A DNA stretch of 39,568 bases from the NCBI GenBank assembly GCA_052035175.1, contig JBPOHV010000001.1, forward strand, positions 1 to 39,568, in the 5' to 3' direction. Positions 1-27,064 of the stretch are shown here, piece after piece. The notes beneath the pieces are model-generated. The model did not search any database. It saw only the letters and a list, made by a program, of their open reading frames with translations, and was not told where the DNA came from. Within the stretch, counting starts at the first letter, position 1. Every line of letters starts with the position of its first letter. Made by a program: the position numbers and the translations under genes. Source of the DNA: a candidate division WWE3 bacterium. GTDB lineage: Bacteria; Patescibacteriota; WWE3; UBA101185; UBA10185.

Positions 1-63
1 TCTTATAAAGGTCAGTCCTTATGAAGGACAGATCCTTCTACTCCTGATATTATACATCTGTAT

Positions 64-2407: not shown

Positions 2408-4062
2408 ATACCACGTTTAAACATTTTTTCAAAAGTAGATTTGTTAATAAACAAAGCAACAGGTCTGCCGTGTGGACAAGTATAATACATATGCTCGTCA
2501 GAAAGTTTCTTTACAAGGTTACTACGTTCAGACAGTGTTAATTTCTCACCTGCCTTGATAGCAGATCGACAAGCTAAATATGCAAGTGTACGCTTGGACA
2601 AATCATCAATAAACTTTTTGTTATTCGAATCAATCACCTCAATTAGCAACTCTTTGATATTATGATCAGAGTAAATCGAGGGTACACTGTTTATCTTATA
2701 TGTACGCTCACCAAATGATTCTATGACAAAGCCTAATTGAGCAAAGTCTACCAAATATGAATCAAACAAAAGAGACTGTGCTACAGACAAGTCAAAAATA
2801 ACTGGATTCAATAAATCTTTTGACGCAGACTGTTCTTGTAATATTGCAAATTCATCTAAAAACTGTGAGTATAAAATACTTTCATGCGCAGCGTGTTGAT
2901 CAATAAATAAAACCCCCTCATCAGTCTCGACGATTAAATAGGTATCAAAAACTTGCGCAATATTTTCAGGTACATCTTTTAACAACCATTTACTTGTGGA
3001 GTCTTTTAAAGTGTTAAAAACATAATTCGATTTTGATCCCCCATATATATCGGTGTTTAGATATAAGCTTTGTTGCAAATTGGCATCTGCAAGAGCAGAC
3101 TTTATTACAGTTGACAATGTAACTAAGAGCTCGGCCTCATTGAGAATAGAAATGCTTTCTTTTTGAGGATGTATGTTTATATCGAGTTCGTGATTGGGAA
3201 GATTAATATATAAAATATAAAATGGGAATTCTTTGTTAAAGATTAGATTGCTATATACCTCACGCATAAGCTTGTTAATATTGGTATTTTGAATTAATCG
3301 ATTATTAATAAAAACAATTTGACGGTCACGAGATACAGTACTTATTTGTGGCGCTCCAATAACTCCAGAAATACTTACTGTCTCACTTTTATACTCTATC
3401 TGTACAAGCTTGTTAGAAACAAAATCCCCATATATTTTTGAAACTTTATTAACGAGTGTATCGTCTGGTTCTATTGTCAAAACTAACTTGGAATTGTGAA
3501 ACAGTTGAAGCATGATACATTCGGTGGAAAAAGCAAATGCCTGAATAAGCTTTGTTATCTTTATAAATTCTTGAGATGCATTATTCAAAAACTTTTTACG
3601 AACAGGTAAATTGAAAAATAAATCTGATACAGATATAACAGTCCCAGTATCTATGTTACAAATAGATTGCGATATAAATTCGCCGCCAGAAATCTTGAGT
3701 GTGTGAGCGATAGAATCATTTGCCGATTTGCTAGTGATTTCAAAATTGGAAACTGTGCATATGCTATGCAAAGCTTCACCGCGAAATCCCAAGGTACTAA
3801 TATCTTCTAAATCGGACACTTTATCTAATTTGCTTGTTGTATGAGGTAAATAACATAACTGCAAGTCTTCATATGACATTCCGCAACCATTGTCACGAAC
3901 ACGGATCAAACTTTGACCTCCGTCTGTAACATCTACAATAATTTCTGTTGCACCAGCATCGAGCGAATTTTCAATTAATTCTTTTACAACATTCACAGGA
4001 GAATGTATTACTTCACCGGCAGCTATTTTGGCTATAACATCTTTATGCAGTTTCTTTATCAT
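2404..4062 (-). CDS. mutL: DNA mismatch repair protein MutL
   Basis: IAAGEVI, VKELIENSLDAGA, DNGCGM, TLGFRGEAL; C-terminal DQHAAHE, ACR and CPHGRP motifs. Confidence 0.97.
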   Translation of the reverse strand: MIKKLHKDVIAKIAAGEVIHSPVNVVKELIENSLDAGATEIIVDVTDGGQSLIRVRDNGCGMSYEDLQLCYLPHTTSKLDKVSDLEDISTLGFRGEALHSICTVSNFEITSKSANDSIAHTLKISGGEFISQSICNIDTGTVISVSDLFFNLPVRKKFLNNASQEFIKITKLIQAFAFSTECIMLQLFHNSKLVLTIEPDDTLVNKVSKIYGDFVSNKLVQIEYKSETVSISGVIGAPQISTVSRDRQIVFINNRLIQNTNINKLMREVYSNLIFNKEFPFYILYINLPNHELDINIHPQKESISILNEAELLVTLSTVIKSALADANLQQSLYLNTDIYGGSKSNYVFNTLKDSTSKWLLKDVPENIAQVFDTYLIVETDEGVLFIDQHAAHESILYSQFLDEFAILQEQSASKDLLNPVIFDLSVAQSLLFDSYLVDFAQLGFVIESFGERTYKINSVPSIYSDHNIKELLIEVIDSNNKKFIDDLSKRTLAYLACRSAIKAGEKLTLSERSNLVKKLSDEHMYYTCPHGRPVALFINKSTFEKMFKRGI

Positions 4063-13138: not shown

Positions 13139-13228
13139 TGGCGGAGGGAGAGGGATTTGAACCCTCGGTGAGATTGCTCCCACACAGTCTTTCCAGGACT
13201 GCGCACTAGACCACTATGCGATCCCTCC
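13139..13228 (-). tRNA. tRNA-Ser(GGA)
   Basis: GGAGGGA/TCCCTCC acceptor, G73, encoded CCA, anticodon arm CAGTC-CTGGAAA-GACTG, long variable arm, TTCAAAT T-loop. Confidence 0.97.
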
Positions 13229-13287
13229 AAGCACGTGAATTTTAACATAAGAACAAAGGTAATTTACTAAAAAATGGTTTTGAGAAC

Positions 13288-13605
13288 TTACTTCTTTATG
13301 GGAGCTTTGATCTCTATCTTACCCAAATTTTTTCCAAAATACTTAAAAAGTAAATAAACAACAAATGCCAAAACCAAAAAGTCTACAAATACAGAGATAA
13401 AGTGACCATATCTGAAAACCACACCATTTAAAGTGAGCGAAAGTGTTTCTAAATTGACAACTGAACCAAACAATAACGAAAGCGAAGGATTTATCAAATC
13501 ATCTACCAAAGCCGATACCAAGCCAGAAACACCTGTACCCATAATAAACCCTATTGCGAGGCCAAATATGCCCTGTTCTCTTACAAATGCAATAAATCCC
13601 CTCAT
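13288..13605 (-). CDS. mscL: Large-conductance mechanosensitive channel
   Basis: MRGFIAFVREQGIFGLAIGFIMG, DDLINP, RYGHFISVFVDFLVLAFVVY. Confidence 0.9.
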   Translation of the reverse strand: MRGFIAFVREQGIFGLAIGFIMGTGVSGLVSALVDDLINPSLSLLFGSVVNLETLSLTLNGVVFRYGHFISVFVDFLVLAFVVYLLFKYFGKNLGKIEIKAPIKK

Positions 13606-14309
13606 AACTCTTTTGAATTTTCTTTAAATTTACCCAAGTCTGGATCCAAATATAGTTTGGGCAACATACTAGAAGGTTCCCATTTGGCTTTTAGATCATT
13701 AATATCTGAACTAGTTTGATATTTGCCTTTTTCAGCATATGAATCAGCAATTTCTATAGGTGTTACAGCATGAAAGATTATTTGTGCTATGCGTATACCT
13801 ACTGGTAAAGGTATTAGGGCATTACTAAAATTGGTGATTTCCATAGTCCACCTATTAACATAGCCAATATCCCCCCAGCCAGCACATTTACACACAGCTA
13901 TACCCAAACGGCCAATACTACTGCGAGCGCGCATTTCGGTTGTAACTGCCGGTAGAGTGTCTGTTCCATTCCTTCCGCCTATAAACTCTATTGTATGAGC
14001 CAAAATAGTTTCACCAGGAGAAACCAAGATTACTTTATCGTCTGGATCAAGATTGTGATAAGGGTTGGTTTCAGAAATTAACTCTTTCACATAACTGGCT
14101 TCTTCTAGGTTTGCATACATCTTTTCAATAGACGGTTGCCAAAATGGGTTGAGAGTTTGCGAATGTTTTAGAGCAGTTTGACGATAAAAAAACTTTCCTA
14201 ATCTAACGTCATAACTTGCGTTTGCTAAATTAGCCTCATTAAAAGGTTCTATAACAATATTCCCAGCTTTGTAGTGTTTTAATATGTCTGGTTTCGAAAG
14301 TACACTCAT
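13602..14309 (-). CDS. dcd: dCTP deaminase
   Basis: NASYDVRLG, RARSSIGRLG, AGWGDIGY, TMEITN, RIAQIIF. ATG 14309 chosen; TTG 14315 is also possible. Confidence 0.88.
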   Translation of the reverse strand: MSVLSKPDILKHYKAGNIVIEPFNEANLANASYDVRLGKFFYRQTALKHSQTLNPFWQPSIEKMYANLEEASYVKELISETNPYHNLDPDDKVILVSPGETILAHTIEFIGGRNGTDTLPAVTTEMRARSSIGRLGIAVCKCAGWGDIGYVNRWTMEITNFSNALIPLPVGIRIAQIIFHAVTPIEIADSYAEKGKYQTSSDINDLKAKWEPSSMLPKLYLDPDLGKFKENSKEL

Positions 14310-14332
14310 ACGCAAATAAAACTATAACATAC

Positions 14333-14427
14333 TGGCGGAGGGAGTGGGATTCGGTCACCGGTTCTCGCTGCTAGCGAGCCCGTCGACCCCGCCTCACTCA
14401 CTTTGCTCGTTCCGGCATTCGAATCCC
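14333..14427 (-). repeat. Duplicated 3' end of tRNA-Ser(CGA) carrying a 63-nt structured insert in the T-loop
   Basis: 14333-14353 is identical to 14481-14501 (21 nt); ATTCG repeated at 14349-14353 and 14417-14421 around two hairpins. Confidence 0.85.
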
Positions 14428-14480
14428 TTTATACCTTTCCACAAAATACGCGCTTACAATCAAAGCTATAACTGATTTAT

Positions 14481-14571
14481 TGGCGGAGGGAGTGGGATTC
14501 GAACCCACGTGTAGCTTGCGCCACGCTTGGTTTTCGAGACCAGCCCGGTATGGCCACTTCGGTATCCCTCC
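14481..14571 (-). tRNA. tRNA-Ser(CGA)
   Basis: GGAGGGA acceptor, loop CT-CGA-AA, long variable arm, TTCGAAT T-loop, G73, CCA. Confidence 0.96.
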
Positions 14572-14588
14572 AATCAGCGTAAGCTATA

Positions 14589-14664
14589 TGGTGCACCCGG
14601 AGGGATTTGAACCCCCGACTTCAGCGTCCGCAACGCTGCGTTCTATCCCCTGAACTACGGGTGC
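14589..14664 (-). tRNA. tRNA-Arg(GCG)
   Basis: 76-nt cloverleaf GCACCCG/CGGGTGC, anticodon arm CAGCG-TTGCGGA-CGCTG, A after the D-loop GG, CCA. Confidence 0.95.
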
Positions 14665-14730
14665 GCATCAAAGTTAAGGCTGCGCCAGCCTCAACACAGA
14701 TACTCTAATGTGAATTTAAAGGAAAAGCAA

Positions 14731-15333
14731 CTAGAATTCAAATGTATTGGCGATTTTCTTATAAGCCTTATCAAAAAAAGTCTCGGGTTCAGCATCTAGT
14801 TTTGGCAAATGCCTAGACAAGATTTCATTGAGCTTTGATAACTCTTCTTCATCTATAAACAAAAATAACCTACCCGGCAAAGCATCAAACGTATCAAATA
14901 CCAAGGCCTGCATACCGTTTAACTTTGTAGAAAAAAAGTGCTTAAGCTCTGGCCAATAATATTGTTTGTTGTCATACAAAACCCCATAATTACTCAATTC
15001 GTATTTGACACTTTCTGGAGGCGCTTGGGTCAAGACATGATTTATAAAAATCAAACTACCAATGACCAAAATAAGAGTAAATTGCTGCATTATCAAAAGA
15101 AGTCCAAGTATGACAAATCCGATAGTCAAAAAGACGCGATTAGCTCGATTGTTTGATTTGGTTTTAACTGGCCTAACGATACTTTCTTTAGAAAAATAAA
15201 TATCTTTTTTACCAACACTACGTATAAAGTCTTCTGGAACAAAAGCATCATTTATAGCTTTGGCAGACTCGATAGGGGTAGAAGAATAACTTGCAGTTCT
15301 TACAAAATCTTTAGCTTTATCTAAATATCCCAT
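14731..15333 (-). CDS. Hypothetical membrane protein (two TM helices plus a small soluble domain)
   Basis: Clean 200-aa ORF with a hydrophobic hairpin; CATAAT 6 nt upstream of the ATG. Confidence 0.7.
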   Translation of the reverse strand: MGYLDKAKDFVRTASYSSTPIESAKAINDAFVPEDFIRSVGKKDIYFSKESIVRPVKTKSNNRANRVFLTIGFVILGLLLIMQQFTLILVIGSLIFINHVLTQAPPESVKYELSNYGVLYDNKQYYWPELKHFFSTKLNGMQALVFDTFDALPGRLFLFIDEEELSKLNEILSRHLPKLDAEPETFFDKAYKKIANTFEF

Positions 15334-15378
15334 GTTGTAATTATGTTATCACTAAGACACCAGTCACTCAATACTTAC

Positions 15379-15469
15379 TGGCGGAGGGTGTGGGATTCGA
15401 ACCCACGGACCGCATTTCTACAGTCACGGTTTAGCAAACCGCTGCCTTGGGCCACTCGGCCAACCCTCC
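15379..15469 (-). tRNA. tRNA-Ser(GCT)
   Basis: GGAGGGT acceptor, arm GCGGT-TTGCTAA-ACCGT, long variable arm, TTCGAAT, G73, CCA. Confidence 0.96.
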
Positions 15470-18640: not shown

Positions 18641-18712
18641 ACATTAAGTATGACATCAAAAGTGTTTGGAAGGAATTCCTGGGTCACTAAACATCGCTAA
18701 TAATAACTCTAT

Positions 18713-18796
18713 ATGGTGGACCTTAACCAGCGATATTTCAACCGTCTATTGCAAGTAGTAATCCTTATAAACAAAAGTACTGTTAGTGTACAATAA
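18713..18796 (+). pseudogene. Orphan LSR C-terminal tail at the distal att junction (MVDLNQRYFNRLLQVVILINKSTVSVQ*)
   Basis: Same frame relative to the att core and same VDLN-x3-[WF]N-x-L pattern as the tail at 21522. Confidence 0.55.
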
Positions 18797-18809
18797 CAAA
18801 ATAAATACT

Positions 18810-19343
18810 ATGTACAATCCCTCACCGCAACAACAACAACAACTAGATCTCCTTTTTAAAATACTCGATTTAGCTAGTCAAAATAATATTCGATTATATG
18901 TTACTGGAGGATATGGGTTAGACGCCTTATATGGTGAATTGACAAGAAACCACAGAGATATTGATGTCTATTTACATACCAGTGATGAAGCGGGGTTTAT
19001 TAAAATATTAAATGCGCTTGGCTTTTCCGCGACTAGTCAGACCATAGGTGAAGTTAAAAAGAGAGAGTATAAAAATCCTGACTTTACAGACGAGTTCTCT
19101 ATCGAGTACGGAATTATAGAAGAAGGTATGAGGCTTATGAATACAACTTCCATAGCTGAGTATGTACCAACCACGCCTATTGGAGTATTAAATGGCAAAC
19201 CTATTTGGACATTTACTTTATTCGCGTTCAAAAAGATGCACACATTTAACAAGAGTCCTGCGGCAAGGCATACAGAACCCTATAGACACCAACACTGGCT
19301 TGATAATTTAATGCCTAAATTGGAGGTTAAATATGGAAAATGA
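18810..19343 (+). CDS. Nucleotidyltransferase, ANT(2'')-Ia/Lnu(A)-like family
   Basis: GGYGLDALYGELTRNHRDIDV matches the GG[WY]xxDxxxGxxTRxHxDxD signature. ATG 18810 chosen over GTG 18786. Confidence 0.8.
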   Translation: MYNPSPQQQQQLDLLFKILDLASQNNIRLYVTGGYGLDALYGELTRNHRDIDVYLHTSDEAGFIKILNALGFSATSQTIGEVKKREYKNPDFTDEFSIEYGIIEEGMRLMNTTSIAEYVPTTPIGVLNGKPIWTFTLFAFKKMHTFNKSPAARHTEPYRHQHWLDNLMPKLEVKYGK

Positions 19344-19893
19344 ATTACTTGAGCAACTAAAATTAATCTCTAAAGAACATATGGAAAAAGACAAATTTTT
19401 TCACGACTATGCGCATGCACTAGGGGTGTATTCCAATGTTGAAAAGCTACTGGAGCATGAAAACGGAAATAGACTTGCTTTACTTACCGCGGCACTTTTT
19501 CATGATATTTGTCGAGATCAAGAAGATCACGATAAGGTAGGTGCTAAACTGGCAAAAGAAATTTTAGAAGGAATTAAAGAGTTTCCAAAGGAACATTTAG
19601 ACTCAGTAATTGCACTAATCGAGAAGCACGAAGCAGGGCAGGTCACACAAGATCAAAAAATATTCTCGGATGCAGACAAAATGGAAGCATTTACACCACT
19701 TGGTTTTGCACGAGGTTTAATGATGTTTGCCGAATGGAAATATCCACTTAAAAAAGCCATTTTTACTTATGAGGAATTACTCAAAAAATGGTATAAAGGT
19801 TTTTATTTTGACGTGACTAACCACCTTGTAGAAACAAACTATTCGGAACTTAAAAAATACATCGATGAACTAAAAAGCAGATATAATTATTGA
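19333..19893 (+). CDS. HD-domain phosphohydrolase
   Basis: HDYAH, ALFHDI, IEKHE, DADKME; overlaps the upstream gene by 11 bp. Confidence 0.88.
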   Translation: MENELLEQLKLISKEHMEKDKFFHDYAHALGVYSNVEKLLEHENGNRLALLTAALFHDICRDQEDHDKVGAKLAKEILEGIKEFPKEHLDSVIALIEKHEAGQVTQDQKIFSDADKMEAFTPLGFARGLMMFAEWKYPLKKAIFTYEELLKKWYKGFYFDVTNHLVETNYSELKKYIDELKSRYNY

Positions 19894-19943
19894 TTTTTCC
19901 ATATTCCACTAAGTGTAAGAAATCCATAGAAGATTTAAGTATA

Positions 19944-20019
19944 TGGTGGACCTGAGGGGAATCGAACCCCTGCTCTCTACAATGCGAATGTAGCGCTTTA
20001 CCAACTAAGCTACAGGCCC
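19944..20019 (-). tRNA. tRNA-Ala(CGC)
   Basis: 76-nt cloverleaf, G3:U70 pair, arm CTACA-TTCGCAT-TGTAG, A73, CCA. Confidence 0.97.
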
Positions 20020-20143
20020 AAACTGCATACTTTACGCGCTCGCCTGGTGGCTAACGCACTTTACCAACTAAGCTACAGGCCCATGAAATGGGTAATGTAA
20101 GAGGAAGCGCAGCTGCGAAGCAGGAACAAGCTCTTACAGGCCC
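20020..20143 (-). repeat. Two partial copies of the tRNA-Ala 5' end with hairpin inserts
   Basis: 25-bp copy at 20059-20083 equals 19996-20020; 9-bp copy at 20135-20143; inverted repeat TGTAAGAG/CTCTTACA at 20096-20103 and 20131-20138. Confidence 0.85.
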
Positions 20144-20204
20144 TGACCAAACGATTTTATCATTTTTTTATAAAACCCCTTCTTTTTACTGCTATAATTT
20201 ATAT

Positions 20205-20369
20205 ATGATAAAAGATAACTCTTTAAAATTCGCAGGTTTAATCAGTATAGGGTATTTGGTAATCCAAGTACTTTCAAATGATATTGATGGGCTAGATATT
20301 ATTCCAGCGCTAGTACTAGGTGCTATTGTTTATGTGCTGATGAAAAAATTAGAGCATACGAGAAGGTAA
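20205..20369 (+). CDS. Small two-TM membrane protein (54 aa)
   Basis: TGc-TATAAT 6 nt before ATG 20205; two hydrophobic helices. Confidence 0.6.
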   Translation: MIKDNSLKFAGLISIGYLVIQVLSNDIDGLDIIPALVLGAIVYVLMKKLEHTRR

Positions 20370-20375
20370 TTAAAT

Positions 20376-20492
20376 ATGCCAGTAGCAGGAGAAACACAAA
20401 ACATGAACTGCCCTAAATGCAAGGCATTAACAACACATCAGTATAACGGTAGCCATTGGATTTGCTTAGGGCCAAACCATCGCGGATCATAG
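20376..20492 (+). CDS. 38-aa zinc-ribbon-like microprotein
   Basis: MPVAGETQNMNCPKCKALTTHQYNGSHWICLGPNHRGS; AGAAGG upstream; below the ORF-track cutoff. Confidence 0.45.
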   Translation: MPVAGETQNMNCPKCKALTTHQYNGSHWICLGPNHRGS

Positions 20493-20523
20493 TTTCATTG
20501 CACGAAACAAACAATTAACGTGT

Positions 20524-21198
20524 CTATTCTTGATGTAATAGCGGTACTAATTTTGTCACCGCATCTGGTACAGCAAATTTCCCCAATACAGTCTCCACGC
20601 CAGCTACAGGATATTTACATGCAAACAATGTATTACCTTTAATCTCTTGCGGTTGCTCAGCAGGCGACCCATCAGCAAAACAATAATGATATAAACCTTC
20701 TTCAACTAACCTTTCGAGGAGAGGTAAACTTCTTCTGTTGCATATTGATATGTGCACAATAGGCTGTTCTGCAAGACGAGCGGTCTCATTTATTGTACTG
20801 ATTAAAGTAAATAGCGCCTTAGTACCAGCTAAGGGATTTCGTATCGGTCGGAACTTTTCATCAAAAGTATTCCTTGTACTAATAGCAGAAATAGCAAAAC
20901 GTGGCTCACCTGCGACTAATAAAATAGTTGAATCAGAGTCGGGAGATGGAAATATTTCTTGAACAAAACTAACTTCTATAGAACCTGCATCAAAATCAGT
21001 GGAATTAGGCTCTGTTGATCCCCATTTTATTTGTACTTGATGAACAGGCTTACCGTTTGTTGCCATTGTAGGCATATCAAACTCGGTGACAATAGGATCT
21101 GAAATAGGCTCAATTCTTTGAGATAATCGTTGTAAAGATGGGTTAAACTGTATTGACTCAGGAATAAAATTATCTGGCAAGTTTTCCATATCAGACAT
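20524..21198 (-). CDS. Hypothetical protein (224 aa)
   Basis: Long clean ORF; TAGAAT 9 nt upstream of the ATG; no motif recognised. Confidence 0.6.
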   Translation of the reverse strand: MSDMENLPDNFIPESIQFNPSLQRLSQRIEPISDPIVTEFDMPTMATNGKPVHQVQIKWGSTEPNSTDFDAGSIEVSFVQEIFPSPDSDSTILLVAGEPRFAISAISTRNTFDEKFRPIRNPLAGTKALFTLISTINETARLAEQPIVHISICNRRSLPLLERLVEEGLYHYCFADGSPAEQPQEIKGNTLFACKYPVAGVETVLGKFAVPDAVTKLVPLLHQE

Positions 21199-21310
21199 AA
21201 TAAAAGTATTCTACAACTAATATTGATAACCACACCATAGAAAAGTGAAGCCACGTGTTTGTATATGTACTAAAGTGGACAAAATCACTATAATTCAAAC
21301 AGTGCTTAGC

Positions 21311-21517
21311 ATGAAAAGATTATTTATATCAATAACCTTTACAGTTCTAATGTTTATTTTATTGATTAAGAAACTGTTTCCTCCTATATGTATAAAAATT
21401 GCAGGAGTACCGTGTCCACAACCATTCTATTATCCTACACTTATTATCGGTACTATTATGATTTTTGCAGGAACATACTTGTGTCTTACCCTAATTTCTA
21501 AATTTACAAAAAAGTAA
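21311..21517 (+). CDS. Small membrane protein with a CxxxxxxxC loop (68 aa)
   Basis: Two hydrophobic helices flanking ICIKIAGVPCP. ATG 21311 chosen. Confidence 0.5.
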   Translation: MKRLFISITFTVLMFILLIKKLFPPICIKIAGVPCPQPFYYPTLIIGTIMIFAGTYLCLTLISKFTKK

Positions 21518-21521
21518 AATC

Positions 21522-21626
21522 TTGGTGGACCTAAACCCCAATACTTGGAACCATTTGTTTGACTGGGTTTTGAAATGGGGAAACCTAATACCAAACAAGG
21601 ATTTTGCCTTGGATTATGGTAAATAA
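21522..21626 (+). other. Alternative (excised-state) integrase tail LVDLNPNTWNHLFDWVLKWGNLIPNKDFALDYGK*
   Basis: In frame with LSR codon L505 once 21522 is joined to 26170; no start codon of its own. Confidence 0.7.
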
Positions 21627-21710
21627 TCTACCGCAGGCTATCACATACAGTGATTGGAACTATCCCGCATCACGTATCAAACACTATAGAAGTGGTGATA
21701 AAATTACATA

Positions 21711-22259
21711 ATGAAAGTCTTAGCTTTATTAATTTGGCCGTTATTTTTCATAACTACATTTTTTTTGTTCAATAAAGCTAAACTAAGCATTTTCAATAAA
21801 ACATATAGTAATTTAGGTTCTAATATAAAATACGGCAAAATGTTTAACTTTATTCTTGTTATAACGGGGTTAATTCAACTTCTATTTCTTACGTACGTAT
21901 TAGTAAATAATAAAAGTCAGTATTCCATAATCGGTGTTATGGGTTTAAGTAGCCTGATAGTTACAACAATTGCGGGGATTTTTACGGGAATTATCGCAGA
22001 ACACCATAACGAAAAAATTCACATGAAAATAGCGATAATAGGTTTTACAGGCGCAATAATTGGCTACCCTTTATACGGATTGTATCTGTTTAATGCAAAC
22101 TACAGTGTTGGCGTATTCATGCTTATCTGGGGTTTAATTGTAATGCCTTATCAAGCGTATCGTCATATGTCTGGTAAAAAAATCTATGCTATAAACGAAG
22201 TTTTTATGTTTCTGGGTGCTTTTTTCACCAATATTGCTTTGGTTTGGTTATATTTTTAA
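21711..22259 (+). CDS. Multi-TM membrane protein, DUF998-like
   Basis: TYSNLGS...MFNFILVITG, conserved His (KIHMKIA), 5-6 TM segments; TGa-TAAAAT 6 nt before the ATG. Confidence 0.6.
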   Translation: MKVLALLIWPLFFITTFFLFNKAKLSIFNKTYSNLGSNIKYGKMFNFILVITGLIQLLFLTYVLVNNKSQYSIIGVMGLSSLIVTTIAGIFTGIIAEHHNEKIHMKIAIIGFTGAIIGYPLYGLYLFNANYSVGVFMLIWGLIVMPYQAYRHMSGKKIYAINEVFMFLGAFFTNIALVWLYF

Positions 22260-22283
22260 TGTAGCCCTTTGGCTTACTGGAAA

Positions 22284-22838
22284 TTACAACTTTTTCATTT
22301 CAAATACTTTTCCCATAACTTCTTTCAACTTTTGTAAGTCTTTCGTATAACCTTTTGAAATTAGCCTATCTATAAGCATCGGTGCGCCTAGCACATGTTC
22401 TTTTTCAAGGACGATCAAAGCATTTTTTAACATTTTTTTGTCATTTGAAACCAAGAATAATTCGGGGTGATTTTGACACAGGGATATTAGGGCATAATCT
22501 GTGGCTGAAACTTTATTTCCTACTATATAAGCCAGTTTGTCATTTTCTTGTACTATCAATCTATTTTCTTTCCAATTAGGATCACCTGAATATTCTGAAT
22601 TAATAATATGACTTGTAAGAAACTTGTAATCTAAAGTCCTTGGACCATTTGCAAGTTCTAAAATAACTGAATTTGGAATTAAAAAAGTGGAATGTGCAGA
22701 ACCTTTTATGACATTAAGAATGTTTATACCGCAAAGTTTTTCCAATTCTTCAAAACGGCAGAAAGCACTGGTATCAATAAGGTAAACTTCTAATCCTTTT
22801 AAATTTGCAATTATCTTGTTATTGATATCGTAGGACAT
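22284..22838 (-). CDS. PIN-domain ribonuclease
   Basis: Acidic quartet D22 (LIDTS), E61 (SVILEL), D114 (SATD), D133 (VSND). Confidence 0.8.
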   Translation of the reverse strand: MSYDINNKIIANLKGLEVYLIDTSAFCRFEELEKLCGINILNVIKGSAHSTFLIPNSVILELANGPRTLDYKFLTSHIINSEYSGDPNWKENRLIVQENDKLAYIVGNKVSATDYALISLCQNHPELFLVSNDKKMLKNALIVLEKEHVLGAPMLIDRLISKGYTKDLQKLKEVMGKVFEMKKL

Positions 22839-22840
22839 TT

Positions 22841-23440
22841 TTAGAAAATTCGGATACGATCAGGGACAATGCTTAAACGGTATAAAAATTCCCATATGGT
22901 TAAACATAAAGTAACTACTTTGATTATTAACTTTACTAATTTGCCCACGAAGGAAAATTCCAATTGTTTTCTATTAAAACCAACACTTCCTAATAGCTGG
23001 AAGGGTATGCTTGCTATCAATTCTAAGATTTTACCAAGCCAGTAGAAAGGGTTCACTGTACGCAAGATTGCCATTGGAATGTCGCTTTCGTAATTACCGT
23101 ATGCCCTGTCAACCATGTCGATAAGTGCTTGGTATTCTATTTCATATCTGGATAAATTAAAGATATTTTCCATCATATCAATATGAACAACGGGACCACC
23201 TATAGCGGGCGGAGGGCAATAAGTTACGGAAGGATAAATATCGGCATCCATTAGCAACTGCTTAACTTTACCGGCATTCTTGTTTATTTGGTCCCGGATA
23301 GGCAAACTTTTGTCGTTATCAATAAGATCTGGGCTGAATTCCGCATATTCTACAGTAGAAAAGTATTTTGTTATAAGCTTTTTAAATAGTTCTAAAGACT
23401 TTCTGGAATTATTGTTATCAAAGATTGTCTTGTCTTTCAT
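22841..23440 (-). CDS. Hypothetical protein with C-terminal hydrophobic helices, co-operonic with the PIN gene
   Basis: 199-aa ORF with PPPAIGG and NPFYW motifs; stop is 2 bp before the PIN start. Confidence 0.7.
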   Translation of the reverse strand: MKDKTIFDNNNSRKSLELFKKLITKYFSTVEYAEFSPDLIDNDKSLPIRDQINKNAGKVKQLLMDADIYPSVTYCPPPAIGGPVVHIDMMENIFNLSRYEIEYQALIDMVDRAYGNYESDIPMAILRTVNPFYWLGKILELIASIPFQLLGSVGFNRKQLEFSFVGKLVKLIIKVVTLCLTIWEFLYRLSIVPDRIRIF

Positions 23441-23446
23441 ATGACT

Positions 23447-23489
23447 GGATTATAACACCGCTTATGCTTGTAACAATAAGCTATAATCC
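23447..23489. promoter_or_regulatory. Palindromic divergent promoter/operator inside the element
   Basis: GGATTATA (23447-23454) / TATAATCC (23482-23489) and GCTTAT/ATAAGC inverted repeats; each TATAAT is 8 nt before an ATG. Confidence 0.65.
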
Positions 23490-23495
23490 TATTAC

Positions 23496-24077
23496 ATGGA
23501 TACAATACAAGATAAAATTGGAAAAATCGGACCTGTGGAAATTGGTACACCCTATAAAACCGAAAAGGGCGGAACATATAAATATCCACTTCATCGGTTA
23601 ATAGAATTTCTTGACGTTAATGCAGACGACGAAGAATTTGTTGAACTGTTTTGCGAACGATTTAAATTTATTCCACGAAACCTTACAGAAGGTTGGGCAA
23701 AAGGATTTAAAGAAGAACAAGCACCAATAAAGGAAATCTACGAAAAACTTGAAAAGGGTAATTTGACAGAAGACGACATTAATCGCATAAACATAGAACT
23801 GGAACAAATCCACCCAAAGTTACATATACATAAAACTATGGGGCAAATAAATACAAATTCAGTTTACGAAACTTCAATTCATAAAAATTCTGTGGTTTCC
23901 ATTTGGGAAGATTTAAAAAACTATATCTTGGAAAAAAGTTATATCAAGCGTTGCCCCTACTGCGGAAATCCTTTTTTAAGGAATAAAATAAGACCACAGC
24001 AAAAATTCTGCTGTGACGAACACCGCTTAAAAGCACGCGAAGCAAGAAAACAGCAGAACAGAAGGCAGAAAAACTGA
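23496..24077 (+). CDS. Protein with a C-terminal zinc finger (CGNR/DUF6076-like), probable regulator
   Basis: IKRCPYCGNPF...KFCCDEHRLKAREARK; N-terminal EFL-x9-LFCERFKF. Confidence 0.65.
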   Translation: MDTIQDKIGKIGPVEIGTPYKTEKGGTYKYPLHRLIEFLDVNADDEEFVELFCERFKFIPRNLTEGWAKGFKEEQAPIKEIYEKLEKGNLTEDDINRINIELEQIHPKLHIHKTMGQINTNSVYETSIHKNSVVSIWEDLKNYILEKSYIKRCPYCGNPFLRNKIRPQQKFCCDEHRLKAREARKQQNRRQKN

Positions 24078-24129
24078 CCCCCCGGAAGACCCCCTGAAAG
24101 CAAGCCAATCAATCCGATAAAGTATCCCT

Positions 24130-24375
24130 GTGATACAAGATATATACAAAACAAAGGACCTTTTTGAAGCAAGCTATCTTCATTCAGCCGGATTACCCCT
24201 TAATGGATTAACCAATGGTGGTAATTACTATTGGTTTGAATTTTCCAATCAAAAACAATGCCAAGAACTATCTACAAAATATTGGGCTAAAAAAGCCAAC
24301 GGCAACATTAAAACATTTGTGGACAGTCTTAAGACGCTTAAAGACTTGGTTTTTTCAAGAAAAGGAGCGCTATGA
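24130..24375 (+). CDS. DUF5659-like small protein
   Basis: YKTKDLFEASYL...G..L...FEF...Y...K.LKDLVF pattern; GTG start. Confidence 0.6.
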   Translation: MIQDIYKTKDLFEASYLHSAGLPLNGLTNGGNYYWFEFSNQKQCQELSTKYWAKKANGNIKTFVDSLKTLKDLVFSRKGAL

Positions 24376-24500
24376 TTACTGTAAACGACGCAAGAAAGAT
24401 ATTGGGCACTTTTGGAAGTAATAAAACTGACGTTGAAATCGAAATGATAGTAAAATTTATTTATAAGTTAGGCGAAAGGGTGGTGCTGGATTTTGGGTAA
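24372..24500 (+). CDS. 42-aa protein upstream of the LSR (candidate directionality factor)
   Basis: MITVNDARKILGTFGSNKTDVEIEMIVKFIYKLGERVVLDFG; ATGA overlap with the upstream stop; AAAGGAG RBS; not in the ORF track. Confidence 0.65.
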   Translation: MITVNDARKILGTFGSNKTDVEIEMIVKFIYKLGERVVLDFG

Positions 24501-24657
24501 AATGTCCGAAATGCCCGACTTCAGGCATATCAAATTGCCGAAATTCCCGATTGAAGGGCATTGAAATTAAGCAAATTCAGCAGTTAAAGTGCTTAAAATG
24601 TCACAAATGTAGCACTTTTGGGGGTATAAATCCCACAAATCCCGCATAAAAGACTAT

Positions 24658-26241
24658 ATGGATACAAAAAACAAAAAAGCATTAATATATTGCAGGGTTT
24701 CATCAGAAAGACAGGTCAATGAAGGCCACGGACTGGATAGCCAAGAAAGTAGGTGCCGACAATACGCCGAAAACAAGGGATATGCTGTTACAGAAATCTT
24801 TCGTGACGAAGGTATTTCTGGCGGTTTGTTTGAACGCCCCGCCATGAAACAGTTAATTTCTTTCATGGATAAGACCCCTTTTGAAAAATATATAGTCATT
24901 TTTGATGACCTAACAAGATTTGCGCGTGACGTTAAAGTTCACTTGGAATTGAAACTGGCGCTTAAATCACGTGGCGCTACATTTGAATGCTTAAACTTCA
25001 ACTTCGAAGATAGCCCTGAAGGTGAATTAAGCGAAAACATTTCTATGGCTTCCGCCCAATATGAAAGGCAGAAAAACAGACGCCAAGTGATGCAGAAGCA
25101 GAAAGCCCGACTTGAAGCTGGTTATTGGTGTTTCTGTAATGCAGACGCCTTTAAATTCACCAAAGACCCCGTGCACGGGAAACTACTGGTCAGAAACGAA
25201 CCGTTCGCTTCAATTTACAAAGACGCCATTGAACAGTTTGAACAAAGAAAGTTAATAAGCAAAGAACAAGTCAAAGAATTTATCTATGCTGAATATCAAC
25301 GACTTAATTTGAAAAGAAAAAAACCCGGCAATAATACAGTTGAAAGAATACTTAAAAACCCCTTGTTCGCTGGATATGTCGAATATTTGCCTTGGGGTGT
25401 GACCAGACGACTGGGACATCACAAAGGTTTTATATCCCCTGAAACGTTTGATAATGTACAAGAAATCCTTGCTGGAAGGACTTTAAAACGTACACGCAAA
25501 GACTACAGCCTTGATTTTCCATTAAGGGGATATGTTTTATGCGCGGAATGCCAAGAACCAATTACCGCAAGTTGGTCAAAGGGAAGAACCGCCTACTACG
25601 CTTACTATTCTTGTAAAACGGTTGGTTGTAAAAACAGATATAAAACTATCAGAAAAATTAATATCGACGTGGAATTTGAAAAATTACTTGAAGAAACAAA
25701 AACGGCAGAAGAAATACTGAACCTTACAAAACGTATTATGCAAGAAGTTTGGAATAACCAAAAAGTTCAGTTTGAAAGCATAAGTTCCCAAAGCGAAGGT
25801 AAGAAACTGGCGTTACAGAAACAAATTGATGGCTTTATGGGAAGAATAGCCAATGCAACCAACGAACAGGTCATAAAGGCTTATGAAAACCAAGTGGAAA
25901 AACTGATGCAAGAAAAGACAGAACTTGAAACAGGCTTCAAACCTAATCCGTACACCGAAAGTCAGTTTGGAACCGCATTGAATAAAGTGTTTAATGTAAT
26001 ACAGAACCCCTTGTTACAGTGGAAAACCGACAATATTACGGATAAGGAAACGGTGTTAAATATGTATTTTAATGGCAAACTTAATTACGACTTAAATTAT
26101 GGGTTTGGAACCTCCACTTTGGCCCCTGAAATCAACTTAATCAAAGACTTCGGGGCACAAAAAGTTTCATTGGTGGAGATGAGGGGAATTGAACCCCTGT
26201 GTTGCAAGGCTGTTATGCAAAAGTATACAAGCTTATTCTGA
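24658..26241 (+). CDS. Large serine recombinase (integrase)
   Basis: Catalytic IYCRVSS, RPAMKQL, DDLTRFARD; recombinase domain; zinc ribbon LRGYVLCAEC...YYSCKTVGC; coiled coil. The last 23 codons are antisense to tmRNA. Confidence 0.95.
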   Translation: MDTKNKKALIYCRVSSERQVNEGHGLDSQESRCRQYAENKGYAVTEIFRDEGISGGLFERPAMKQLISFMDKTPFEKYIVIFDDLTRFARDVKVHLELKLALKSRGATFECLNFNFEDSPEGELSENISMASAQYERQKNRRQVMQKQKARLEAGYWCFCNADAFKFTKDPVHGKLLVRNEPFASIYKDAIEQFEQRKLISKEQVKEFIYAEYQRLNLKRKKPGNNTVERILKNPLFAGYVEYLPWGVTRRLGHHKGFISPETFDNVQEILAGRTLKRTRKDYSLDFPLRGYVLCAECQEPITASWSKGRTAYYAYYSCKTVGCKNRYKTIRKINIDVEFEKLLEETKTAEEILNLTKRIMQEVWNNQKVQFESISSQSEGKKLALQKQIDGFMGRIANATNEQVIKAYENQVEKLMQEKTELETGFKPNPYTESQFGTALNKVFNVIQNPLLQWKTDNITDKETVLNMYFNGKLNYDLNYGFGTSTLAPEINLIKDFGAQKVSLVEMRGIEPLCCKAVMQKYTSLF

Positions 26242-26567
26242 ATTTTCTTTTGAAGAAAAAGTTTCAGACCAACTTTTGATTTCTTCAGCAAGTAAAGTAG
26301 TTGTGCTTATTGCACTAGATAAATGTTGTTTACTAGACAACATAACCTCAAATCAGTTTTATAAGACAAATCTTTTCTCACCTGATTGAGAGAAAAGCTG
26401 CCCCCCACAAAGTGGGAATCGAAGATCTTATGCAAAAGCATAAGCCATTGCTGGTTCTTCAACTTGTGCGTATTCATTTGCACTTGTATTTGTTGAAAGA
26501 TTAACGAGGAATCAACACCTCAGCTTGCTCCTGCACAAAGAACTTACAGTCAAAGCCTGTCATCCCC
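26171..26567 (-). ncRNA. ssrA: tmRNA (one-piece, 397 nt)
   Basis: 5' GGGGATG pairs with CATCTCC-ACCA (G3:U70), T-arm AGGGG-TTCAATT-CCCCT, internal tag ORF, adjacent to smpB. Confidence 0.95.
26428..26481 (-). other. tmRNA tag reading frame (A)ANEYAQVEEPAMAYAFA*
   Basis: Resume codon GCA after TACAAGT; hydrophobic Ala-rich C-terminus; TAA stop. Confidence 0.8.
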
Positions 26568-26593: not shown

Positions 26594-27064
26594 CTAATAA
26601 GTGCGTAATTTGTCTTGGAGAGCGAGATCGCTTTTGATTTGGCGATCTTTGAGTACTTGTTTCTTTTCAAAATCTTTTTTGCCTTTTACAATGCCTACTT
26701 CGACTTTTAATAATGGCCCTTTTGTTACAAAAGATAAAGGTACGGCTGTGCGTCCTTTTTGAGAAAGCTCTGCAGATAGATGCGCGATTTCTTTTTTTGT
26801 CATCAAAAGTTTTTTGCTTTCACGAGCACGTATAGCGTCGATTTCTTGGCTCTGCTTAGAATAAGCACCTATATACATATTTACAATAAAAGCCTCGTTT
26901 CCTATAACTTTTACAAATGTACCTTCTAGATTGGCCTGGCCTTCGCGGATTGCTTTTACTTCATAACCACGCAAAACAATGCCAGCTTGGATAGTTTCTA
27001 GCACTTCGTGATTGTATAAAGCTTTGCGATTTTTTATTAAAATTCCATGTCTCAACACGTCCAT
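26594..27064 (-). CDS. smpB: SsrA-binding protein
   Basis: NRKALYNHEVLETIQAGIVLRGYEVKAIR, KKLLMTKKEI, GKKDFEKK; TGt-TAAAAT 6 nt before the ATG. Confidence 0.96.
   Translation of the reverse strand: MDVLRHGILIKNRKALYNHEVLETIQAGIVLRGYEVKAIREGQANLEGTFVKVIGNEAFIVNMYIGAYSKQSQEIDAIRARESKKLLMTKKEIAHLSAELSQKGRTAVPLSFVTKGPLLKVEVGIVKGKKDFEKKQVLKDRQIKSDLALQDKLRTY

Follow-up and report, generated by a model that had tools for sequence, protein, structure and literature searches.

A large serine recombinase element at the tmRNA 3′ end of a WWE3 bacterium, with an attachment site inside its own recombinase gene

Serine integrases, the main tools for large-DNA insertion, mostly have idiosyncratic protein genes as their targets in nature. 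Among tyrosine recombinases, phage Mx8 IntP and the SSV-type integrases have the phage-type attachment site (attP) inside int, and integration alters or splits the gene. In 2015 it was stated that serine recombinases were not known to target transfer RNA (tRNA) genes (PMC4383910). Cited exceptions, described as rare where they are listed, are phiRSM1 at tRNA-Ser and the Mycobacterium AICEs at tRNA-Leu (PMC3218068), and some tycheposons bear a large serine recombinase (LSR) at a tRNA or transfer-messenger RNA (tmRNA) gene (bioRxiv 10.1101/2020.12.28.424599). The closest precedent for the locus described here is the ssrA islands of Dehalococcoides, whose LSR, DsiB (~540 aa), is encoded convergently with ssrA by a gene with a 3′ end that overlaps the attachment (att) site (McMurdie et al. 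2011, PMC3146451); the authors of that study suggested that full function of the gene may be restricted to the circular form. These islands carry a 20-bp ssrA repeat, an inferred T-loop insertion point and a module of six genes, among them one for a second, small serine recombinase (DsiA) and homologues of RecF, ParB and Mom; the study includes no analysis of a conserved tail, of covariation or of register (PMC3146451). Here we describe a 4,648-bp element in a 39,568-bp stretch of DNA (“the window”; assembly GCA_052035175.1, contig JBPOHV010000001.1, positions 1 to 39,568) from a candidate division WWE3 bacterium. We think it likely, taking the whole reading together, that its own LSR inserted this small integrative element into the tmRNA 3′ end, with a crossover at a GG dinucleotide, an attP embedded in the LSR open reading frame (ORF) and a 5-bp register shift of an outer motif between attP and the bacterial site, attB.

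Like dsiB, the window’s LSR gene is convergent with ssrA and overlaps the att site at its 3′ end, reaching 71 bp into the tmRNA gene (26171-26241). Unlike the DsiB islands, the element has an 8-bp repeat and no DsiA-, RecF-, ParB- or Mom-type domains in its ORFs, a distinction drawn from the published description. As far as the passages that mention them go, phiRSM uses a small resolvase-like enzyme, unlike the LSR here, and the Mycobacterium AICEs and tycheposons are catalogued only, with no att anatomy given. By sequence and by the predicted fold of a homologue, the window enzyme is a large serine recombinase: its catalytic domain (PF00239, 3.8e-25) has R13, S15 and other catalytic-core residues that are invariant across 32 sequences, and it carries PF07508 and PF13408 with invariant zinc-ribbon cysteines C295, C298, C319 and C324. 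An AlphaFold2 model of the homologue P0005 (predicted local distance difference test score, pLDDT, 87) has long helices at 347-423 after the zinc ribbon, and its top Foldseek matches are Bxb1 (9iu2, E=4.6e-16), SPbeta (9dxh), phiC31 (9tep) and LI (4kis); a profile search of PDB sequences returned catalytic-domain matches only, including TP901-1 and TnpX, and the full-length match came from the fold search. No second copy or remnant of the LSR was found by tblastn against the window at E<=10. Islander-type islands in tRNA genes have a tyrosine recombinase on board and a repeat that is a displaced piece of the tRNA gene, whereas none is present in the ORFs of this island, and no phage-integrase (tyrosine) domain occurs in the 11 ORFs of >=80 aa scanned across 18786-26241.

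The element is flanked by direct repeats of TTGGTGGA (8 bp; 21522-29 and 26170-77), with the right one at the 3′ end of the tmRNA gene. Reading the sequence confirmed all coordinates given in a first-pass annotation of this DNA. There are four GG dinucleotides (26175-76, 21527-28, 19948-49 and 18718-19), of which the two in RNA genes, the tmRNA gene and a nearby tRNA-Ala gene, are antisense to C72-C71; an AACC at +21..+24 in the two element arms (21549-52 and 18740-43) and at +16..+19 in the two RNA arms (26192-95 and 19965-68); and a second pair of direct repeats, TATATGGTGGACCT (14 bp; 18710-23 and 19940-53), which flanks an islet at tRNA-Ala. Two further statements of that annotation also hold: the reconstructed attP has 10 bp in common with tRNA-Ala (TGGTGGACCT) and 8 bp with the tmRNA site (TTGGTGGA), and the element would supply the ACCA end of the RNA. 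On the left, the position of attL is given by the P′ arm, an element half-site of attP—in a weight matrix built from 57 other elements, the arm from 21529 on ranks 1 of ~79,000 window positions, so attL is correctly placed. Related elements span 3.4-10.6 kb, and related circular contigs ~4.2-10.8 kb. A search for attL by repeats only was rejected, since many of its 9-10-nt matches, one of 10 nt near window position 961 among them, were due to chance. In three related loci the longest repeat is an older tRNA fragment, a 15-20-nt piece of the tRNA-Ala 3′ end located 150-180 bp left of the true P′ arm (L022 at 5786, L027 at 5623 and L028 at 5445); these fragments look like the scar of an older, almost wholly deleted tandem insertion.

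The two ends of the element, read together, split the recombinase gene. Codons 1-506 of the LSR are encoded by the element, and codons 507-527 (EMRGIEPLCCKAVMQKYTSLF) are an antisense reading of the tmRNA gene. When the window is joined from 26176 to 21529, the frame instead continues past codon 506 into VDLNPNTWNHLFDWVLKWGNLIPNKDFALDYGK, giving a protein of 538 aa with its stop at 21626. Among 120 homologues, 116 end in the RNA-antisense peptide (..VEMxGxEP). The alignment consensus, in which V506 is invariant, ends in ..GFGTAxLxxPIxLIxxxGxxKxxxVEMxGxEPxS, with a last part that is the antisense translation of the acceptor and T arms. The other four (P0005, P0026, P0042 and P0117) instead continue LVD(I/L)xxxxWNx(I/L)xx(Y/W)(I/V)x(K/R)W... 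and lie on small contigs without an RNA gene; terminal overlaps of 127 nt in two of these (4,330 and 10,950 bp) and of 26 nt in a third (7,539 bp) mark them as excised circles. A search with the tail pattern, its W-N columns left free, gave 103 forward versus 17 reverse matches and yielded ~60 non-redundant P′ arms upstream of integrated LSRs, with Trp in 55/59 and Asn in 53/59. On this evidence, attP lies inside the LSR ORF and a conserved 32-residue tail (VD....WN.[IL]..[YW][IV].[KR]W...) is encoded only on the excised circle; integration swaps it for ~21 residues that come from an antisense reading of the acceptor and T arms of the tmRNA gene. Because conservation of the tail (Y/W, I/V, K/R, W, Y, P) runs out to +56 with synonymous sites free, it is also a real protein segment, and one that may matter for enzyme activity. 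In the model of P0005 the att codon falls in a disordered linker (498-508), followed by a helix.

The first-pass annotation had proposed a survey of insertion sites among close LSR homologues. We found 2,855 homologues (E<=1e-20), mainly in Patescibacteria with a branch in Alpha- and Gammaproteobacteria, and the comparison set comprised ~190 related loci. In 96 of 166 fetched LSR loci, ARAGORN placed a convergent tRNA or tmRNA with its 3′ end inside the end of the LSR ORF: 39 tmRNA, 35 Ala, 7 Arg, 6 Tyr, 3 Met, 2 Leu, 2 Ile, 1 Lys and 1 Glu. The ARAGORN counts understate tmRNA targeting, since an Rfam recheck of eight ARAGORN-negative loci (L002, L005, L006, L008, L009, L011, L015 and L017) found a tmRNA abutting the LSR in all eight, at 85-117 bits. 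The 83%-identical relative L188 sits in a tmRNA gene and has the same ACCT inner arm as the window element, so a match of the inner arm to tRNA-Ala does not reveal which gene is targeted. Only 3 close relatives were found in a scan of viral contigs, which argues that these elements are mostly not phages.

The crossover itself can be placed by comparing what the two junctions of each element share. In 53 non-redundant attL/attR pairs (islands of 3.4-10.6 kb), only GTGG(A) is shared, with GG as the central dinucleotide. Two elements in other targets depart from this: L109, at tRNA-Glu, has GA in both sites and a next base that differs (A vs C), and L138, at tRNA-Ile, has CC in both sites and again a differing next base (A vs G). 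The element arm therefore follows its target in just the two bases that are antisense to positions 72-71, and no longer does so at +1. In serine recombinases the central dinucleotide must match between attP and attB. As the central dinucleotide covaries with the target (GG, GA, CC) and +1 does not, strand exchange probably takes place at the GG complementary to tmRNA C72-C71; a local symmetry, T-NN-A with G..C, is also centred there, with identity of 0.9 and 0.8 at positions 1 and 2. The crossover at GG put forward in the first-pass annotation thereby gains comparative support from 53 GG, 1 GA and 1 CC elements.

That annotation had also proposed a motif whose distance from the crossover is 5 bp shorter in attB than in attP. 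Across the family, the consensus P′ arm is ACAT..T....AAAA.TTGGAACCAA.T and the consensus B arm, on the RNA-gene side, is AGATG.CGGGA.TTGAACCCG.GTCC; the element arm has TTGGAAC at +17..+23, and the T-arm of tRNA and tmRNA has TYGAACC at +13..+19 (in the window’s tmRNA, TTGAACC at 26189-26195). In 59 P′ arms, T18 occurs at a frequency of 1.00, G19 at 0.93, G20 at 1.00, A21 at 0.98 and A22 at 0.97. When P′(i+s) was compared with B(i) within elements, positions i=13..18 matched at 0.71 for a shift of s=5 and at 0.51 for s=4, with all other shifts at <=0.36, whereas the inner region (i=1..8) peaked at s=0 (0.43), the inner 8 bp thus being in register. The zinc-ribbon-domain motif of LI integrase occupies 16-24 in attP and 11-19 in attB (PMC3783163), and the one mismatch here, P′19 against B14, falls at a position where LI integrase makes no contact (comparison with PMC3783163). 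These data support a shared T.GAAC(C) that lies 5 bp nearer the crossover in attB than in attP, which fits the canonical LSR pattern, and the zinc-ribbon domain may read T.GAAC motifs in both P′ and the T-arm. The proposed shift accordingly stands for the P′/B pair; for the other pair of half-sites, P and B′, it does not, there being no signal.

Several points weigh against this reading. Neither an empty attB nor a circle junction was retrieved for the source organism, and an exact look-up of the window’s SmpB protein, aimed at an empty site or a sister strain, returned no record. The crossover is placed by covariation in just two variant elements together with local symmetry, and an inverted-repeat symmetry scan alone cannot separate a GG from a GA centre. 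Moreover, the GT left of the GG is invariant, with G and T at -3 and -2 identical in all attL/attR pairs, so the repeats do not exclude an exchange one or two bases further left, at TG or GT. We regard such a displacement as improbable—element-arm positions -1 and 0 would then track the target (GG, GA, CC), and +1 would not, with no mechanism to account for it, and the exchange would be off the centre of the T-NN-A symmetry. As to the outer motif, it is present in one arm per site only (P′ and B): the P arm, which is coding, has TTTTTG at 11-16 in its place, B′ has no conservation, and the P/B′ pair shows no shift. In the T-arm the motif is the universal GTPsiC/T-stem, which stands at a fixed distance from the acceptor end of any tRNA regardless of integrase, so that the two RNA-arm AACCs are trivial as evidence. 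GAAC is also missing at +20..23 from L161, an attP-form relative (38% identity) found on a viral contig, and the shift is therefore clade-specific at best. Lastly, the tail helix in the P0005 model is of only moderate confidence (pLDDT ~66-70), from an alignment with few tail rows.

Coding constraint is a further confounder for the conservation of AACC, and one that the first-pass annotation missed. In frame, its AACC is the Asn codon AAC plus one C, within the TGG AAC C of the conserved Trp-Asn pair. GGAAC could then have been kept only as the Trp-Asn code of the LSR tail, with the zinc-ribbon domain reading something else and the 5-bp offset a coincidence (we estimate the chance of a 4-mer match at the predicted shift at ~0.01-0.02). 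The exact in-frame fit of TGG AAC, the extension of protein conservation well past the 25-bp half-site, and the absence of the motif from the P and B′ arms and from L161 are what this explanation would lead one to expect. Synonymous positions in and beside the motif tell otherwise: the Asn codon is AAC rather than AAT in a ratio of 47:6, against 35% AAC in the same genes (p=9e-16), and the third base of the variable codon before Trp (T17) is T in 53/59 arms against a background of 31% (p=7e-21), whereas the neighbouring Gln codon (CAA/CAG) and the Tyr codon further on follow background. This bias argues that T17-C23 are constrained as DNA on top of their coding role. Taken with the sharp peak of the scan at s=5, the value expected a priori, and with a sole mismatch at a position that LI integrase leaves uncontacted, it makes an explanation by coding alone unlikely, and we retain a motif that is both translated and, probably, bound. 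An attempt to extend the motif to the Proteobacterial relatives failed: the only attP form found, L161, is without it, and the Proteobacterial islands exceed the 10-kb flanks, with their left ends beyond the fetched sequence.

The findings suggest a cycle in which the excised circle would express the full-length, 538-aa LSR, and its attP (P and P′) would pair with the tmRNA 3′ end (B′ and B). The zinc-ribbon domain would recognise T.GAAC in both partners, at +18..+23 of P′ and +13..+18 of the T-arm, and exchange at the GG would rebuild the tmRNA with an ACCA from the element’s P arm, leaving that gene intact. Integration would strand the tail-coding segment at attL, 4.6 kb away, and the chromosomal copy would make a tail-swapped enzyme. 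Since circles occur, excision must work in this integrated, tail-swapped state, and it may do so with the DUF5659 protein encoded just upstream. It is conceivable, though we think it doubtful, that the embedded attP acts as a built-in state sensor, with the tail biasing the enzyme to integration and its absence biasing it to excision or silence; if so, the act of recombination would itself set part of the directionality or timing, and one DNA stretch would serve as Trp-Asn codons and as the enzyme’s own binding motif.

The tyrosine systems named at the outset, Mx8 IntP and the SSV-type integrases, resemble this element in that integration alters the integrase gene, and they differ in belonging to an unrelated enzyme family with another mechanism. 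With the canonical LSRs (A118/LI, Bxb1, phiC31 and SPbeta), the window enzyme shares its domain set, its predicted fold and short att sites with a presumed central dinucleotide that is non-palindromic, as well as an inner half-site in register and an outer motif 5 bp closer in attB (PMC3783163). Those enzymes target a protein gene or an intergenic site, whereas this family targets a tRNA/tmRNA 3′ end; unlike them, the window’s attP is inside the integrase ORF, so that integration exchanges the C-terminal 32 residues, and the family’s shifted motif is in one arm per site only. We found no description in the literature of a conserved split tail or register shift for tRNA/tmRNA-targeting LSRs, although the DsiB paper anticipates the overlap. 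A motif with both a coding and a putative binding role, a centre that covaries with the target and a family of this breadth also appear to be undescribed so far. The family numbers thousands of members, spread over Patescibacteria and Proteobacteria, and the universal T-arm of tRNA/tmRNA genes appears to serve as its attB outer motif; with a central dinucleotide that tracks the acceptor stem, its target sites could be predicted from sequence and a switch of target would be easy to trace. In addition, the embedded attP offers a clean natural experiment on the role of the LSR C-terminal tail, and would inform how one DNA stretch meets coding and binding constraints together.

Table 1. Features of the element, the tRNA-Ala islet and their surroundings, in window coordinates; the slash marks the join in predicted sequences, and a dot in the strand column means no strand
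Feature	Position	Strand	Details
tRNA-Ala islet, 1,230 bp, no integrase	18720..19949	+	14-bp repeat 18710-23 and 19940-53
ANT(2'')-like nucleotidyltransferase (islet cargo)	18786-19343		Pfam; overlaps HD-domain gene
HD-domain protein (islet cargo)	19333-19893		Pfam
tRNA-Ala(cgc)	19944..20019	-	ARAGORN, Rfam; T-arm TCGAACC at +13..+19 (19962-19968)
attL core TTGGTGGA	21522..21529	.	inferred crossover GG 21527-21528; host flank B′ on left
P′ arm and detached LSR 3′ end	21525..21626	+	in frame reads VDLNPNTWNHLFDWVLKWGNLIPNKDFALDYGK, then stop
Integrated element (island)	21529..26176	+	4,648 bp, between attL and attR in tmRNA gene 3′ end; bounded by 8-bp repeat TTGGTGGA
Candidate zinc-ribbon-domain binding motif TTGGAACC	21545..21552	+	+17..+24 of P′; includes AACC 21549-52, TGG AAC 21546-51
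DUF5659 ORF, 81 aa	24130..24375	+	directly upstream of LSR; Pfam PF18903, E=1.4e-7
LSR gene, integrated form, 527 aa	24658..26241	+	Pfam Resolvase, Recombinase, Zn_ribbon_recom
attR core TTGGTGGA	26170..26177	.	inferred crossover GG 26175-26176, antisense to C72-C71
tmRNA gene (target, B arm)	26171..26567	-	ARAGORN and Rfam RF00023, 111 bits over full model
smpB-like host gene	26594..27064	-	adjoins tmRNA gene; host context right of element
Predicted excised-circle junction (from window join)			..CATTGGTGG / ACCTAAACC..
Predicted empty site (from window)			..AATCTTGGTGG / AGATGAGG..

The islet at tRNA-Ala (Table 1) bears on a further proposal of the first-pass annotation, that a single enzyme targets both tmRNA and tRNA-Ala. 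At the position fixed by its 14-bp repeat, the islet’s left arm reads VDLNQRYFNRLL.. in the tail frame (VDLN...FN.L), its closest match is the P′ arm of the window element itself (21/43; the mean for the family is 15.5), and over +2..+26 it ranks 569/79,086 by weight matrix (p ~0.007). tRNA-Ala is moreover a target of LSR relatives (35 loci), and integrase-less remnants lie beside it in L022, L027 and L028. On this evidence we lean slightly towards the islet being a decayed or non-autonomous relative of the LSR elements. It is also quite possible that it has nothing to do with the family, the 14-bp repeat being the scar of a tyrosine-integrase island or of some other rearrangement and the AACC a product of chance: tRNA 3′-end repeats are typical of tyrosine-integrase islands (Islander, PMC4383910), neither an integrase nor, by tblastn of the window, an LSR remnant was found in or near the islet, and tblastn of both cargo ORFs against all ~190 related loci gave no matches. 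The arm, too, is poor as a whole, with a score of -4.3 against 15.3 for the true P′ and -5.1 and -5.2 for two unrelated GTGG sites, and carries no signal of the tail beyond +26. These data fall short of demonstrating dual targeting by one enzyme, as relatives use one RNA or the other, and the islet is integrase-less with a weak arm. Separately, window 20040-20083, 63 bp upstream of the tRNA-Ala gene, holds a 27/28 copy of the tRNA-Ala 5′ half (19993-20020), preceded by CCTGGTGG, which looks like a truncated tRNA-like remnant of another rearrangement.

Among the neighbours of the element, the DUF5659 ORF is kept beside the LSR in L184, L187, L015, L105, L026, L119 and L091, circular elements being among its carriers, and its product may be a directionality factor or regulator. 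On the host side, an ORF at 21245-21517, on the B′ side of attL, ends 4 bp short of the repeat, and homologues of the smpB-like gene were found by tblastn at the same position in 52 related loci, with that of L188 annotated as SmpB (PF01668). A tRNA-Ser/Arg/Ser cluster at window 13139-15469 also occurs near the tmRNA gene in the Patescibacteria relatives L004, L007, L008, L015, L019, L026 and L085, and one related island includes a LOOT RNA (RF03000, 85 bits; L008 8672-8788).

Three further observations concern more distant members of the family. In L161 (~3110-3150), the P′ arm is a copy of tRNA-Tyr as far as +14 but not beyond, which matches in extent the 20-bp repeat reported for the Dehalococcoides islands. 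For a serine recombinase, a palindromic centre would leave the orientation unfixed, and positions 72-71 read GC, which is palindromic, in the tRNA-Arg loci L038, L041, L069, L070 and L077 and the tRNA-Leu loci L076 and L079. Finally, in the Proteobacterial loci (L036-L080 and others) the LSR is preceded, at ~240 bp, by a small ORF (..EEFLQALWSIIVSFVELGFGVHP..) that is conserved among them.

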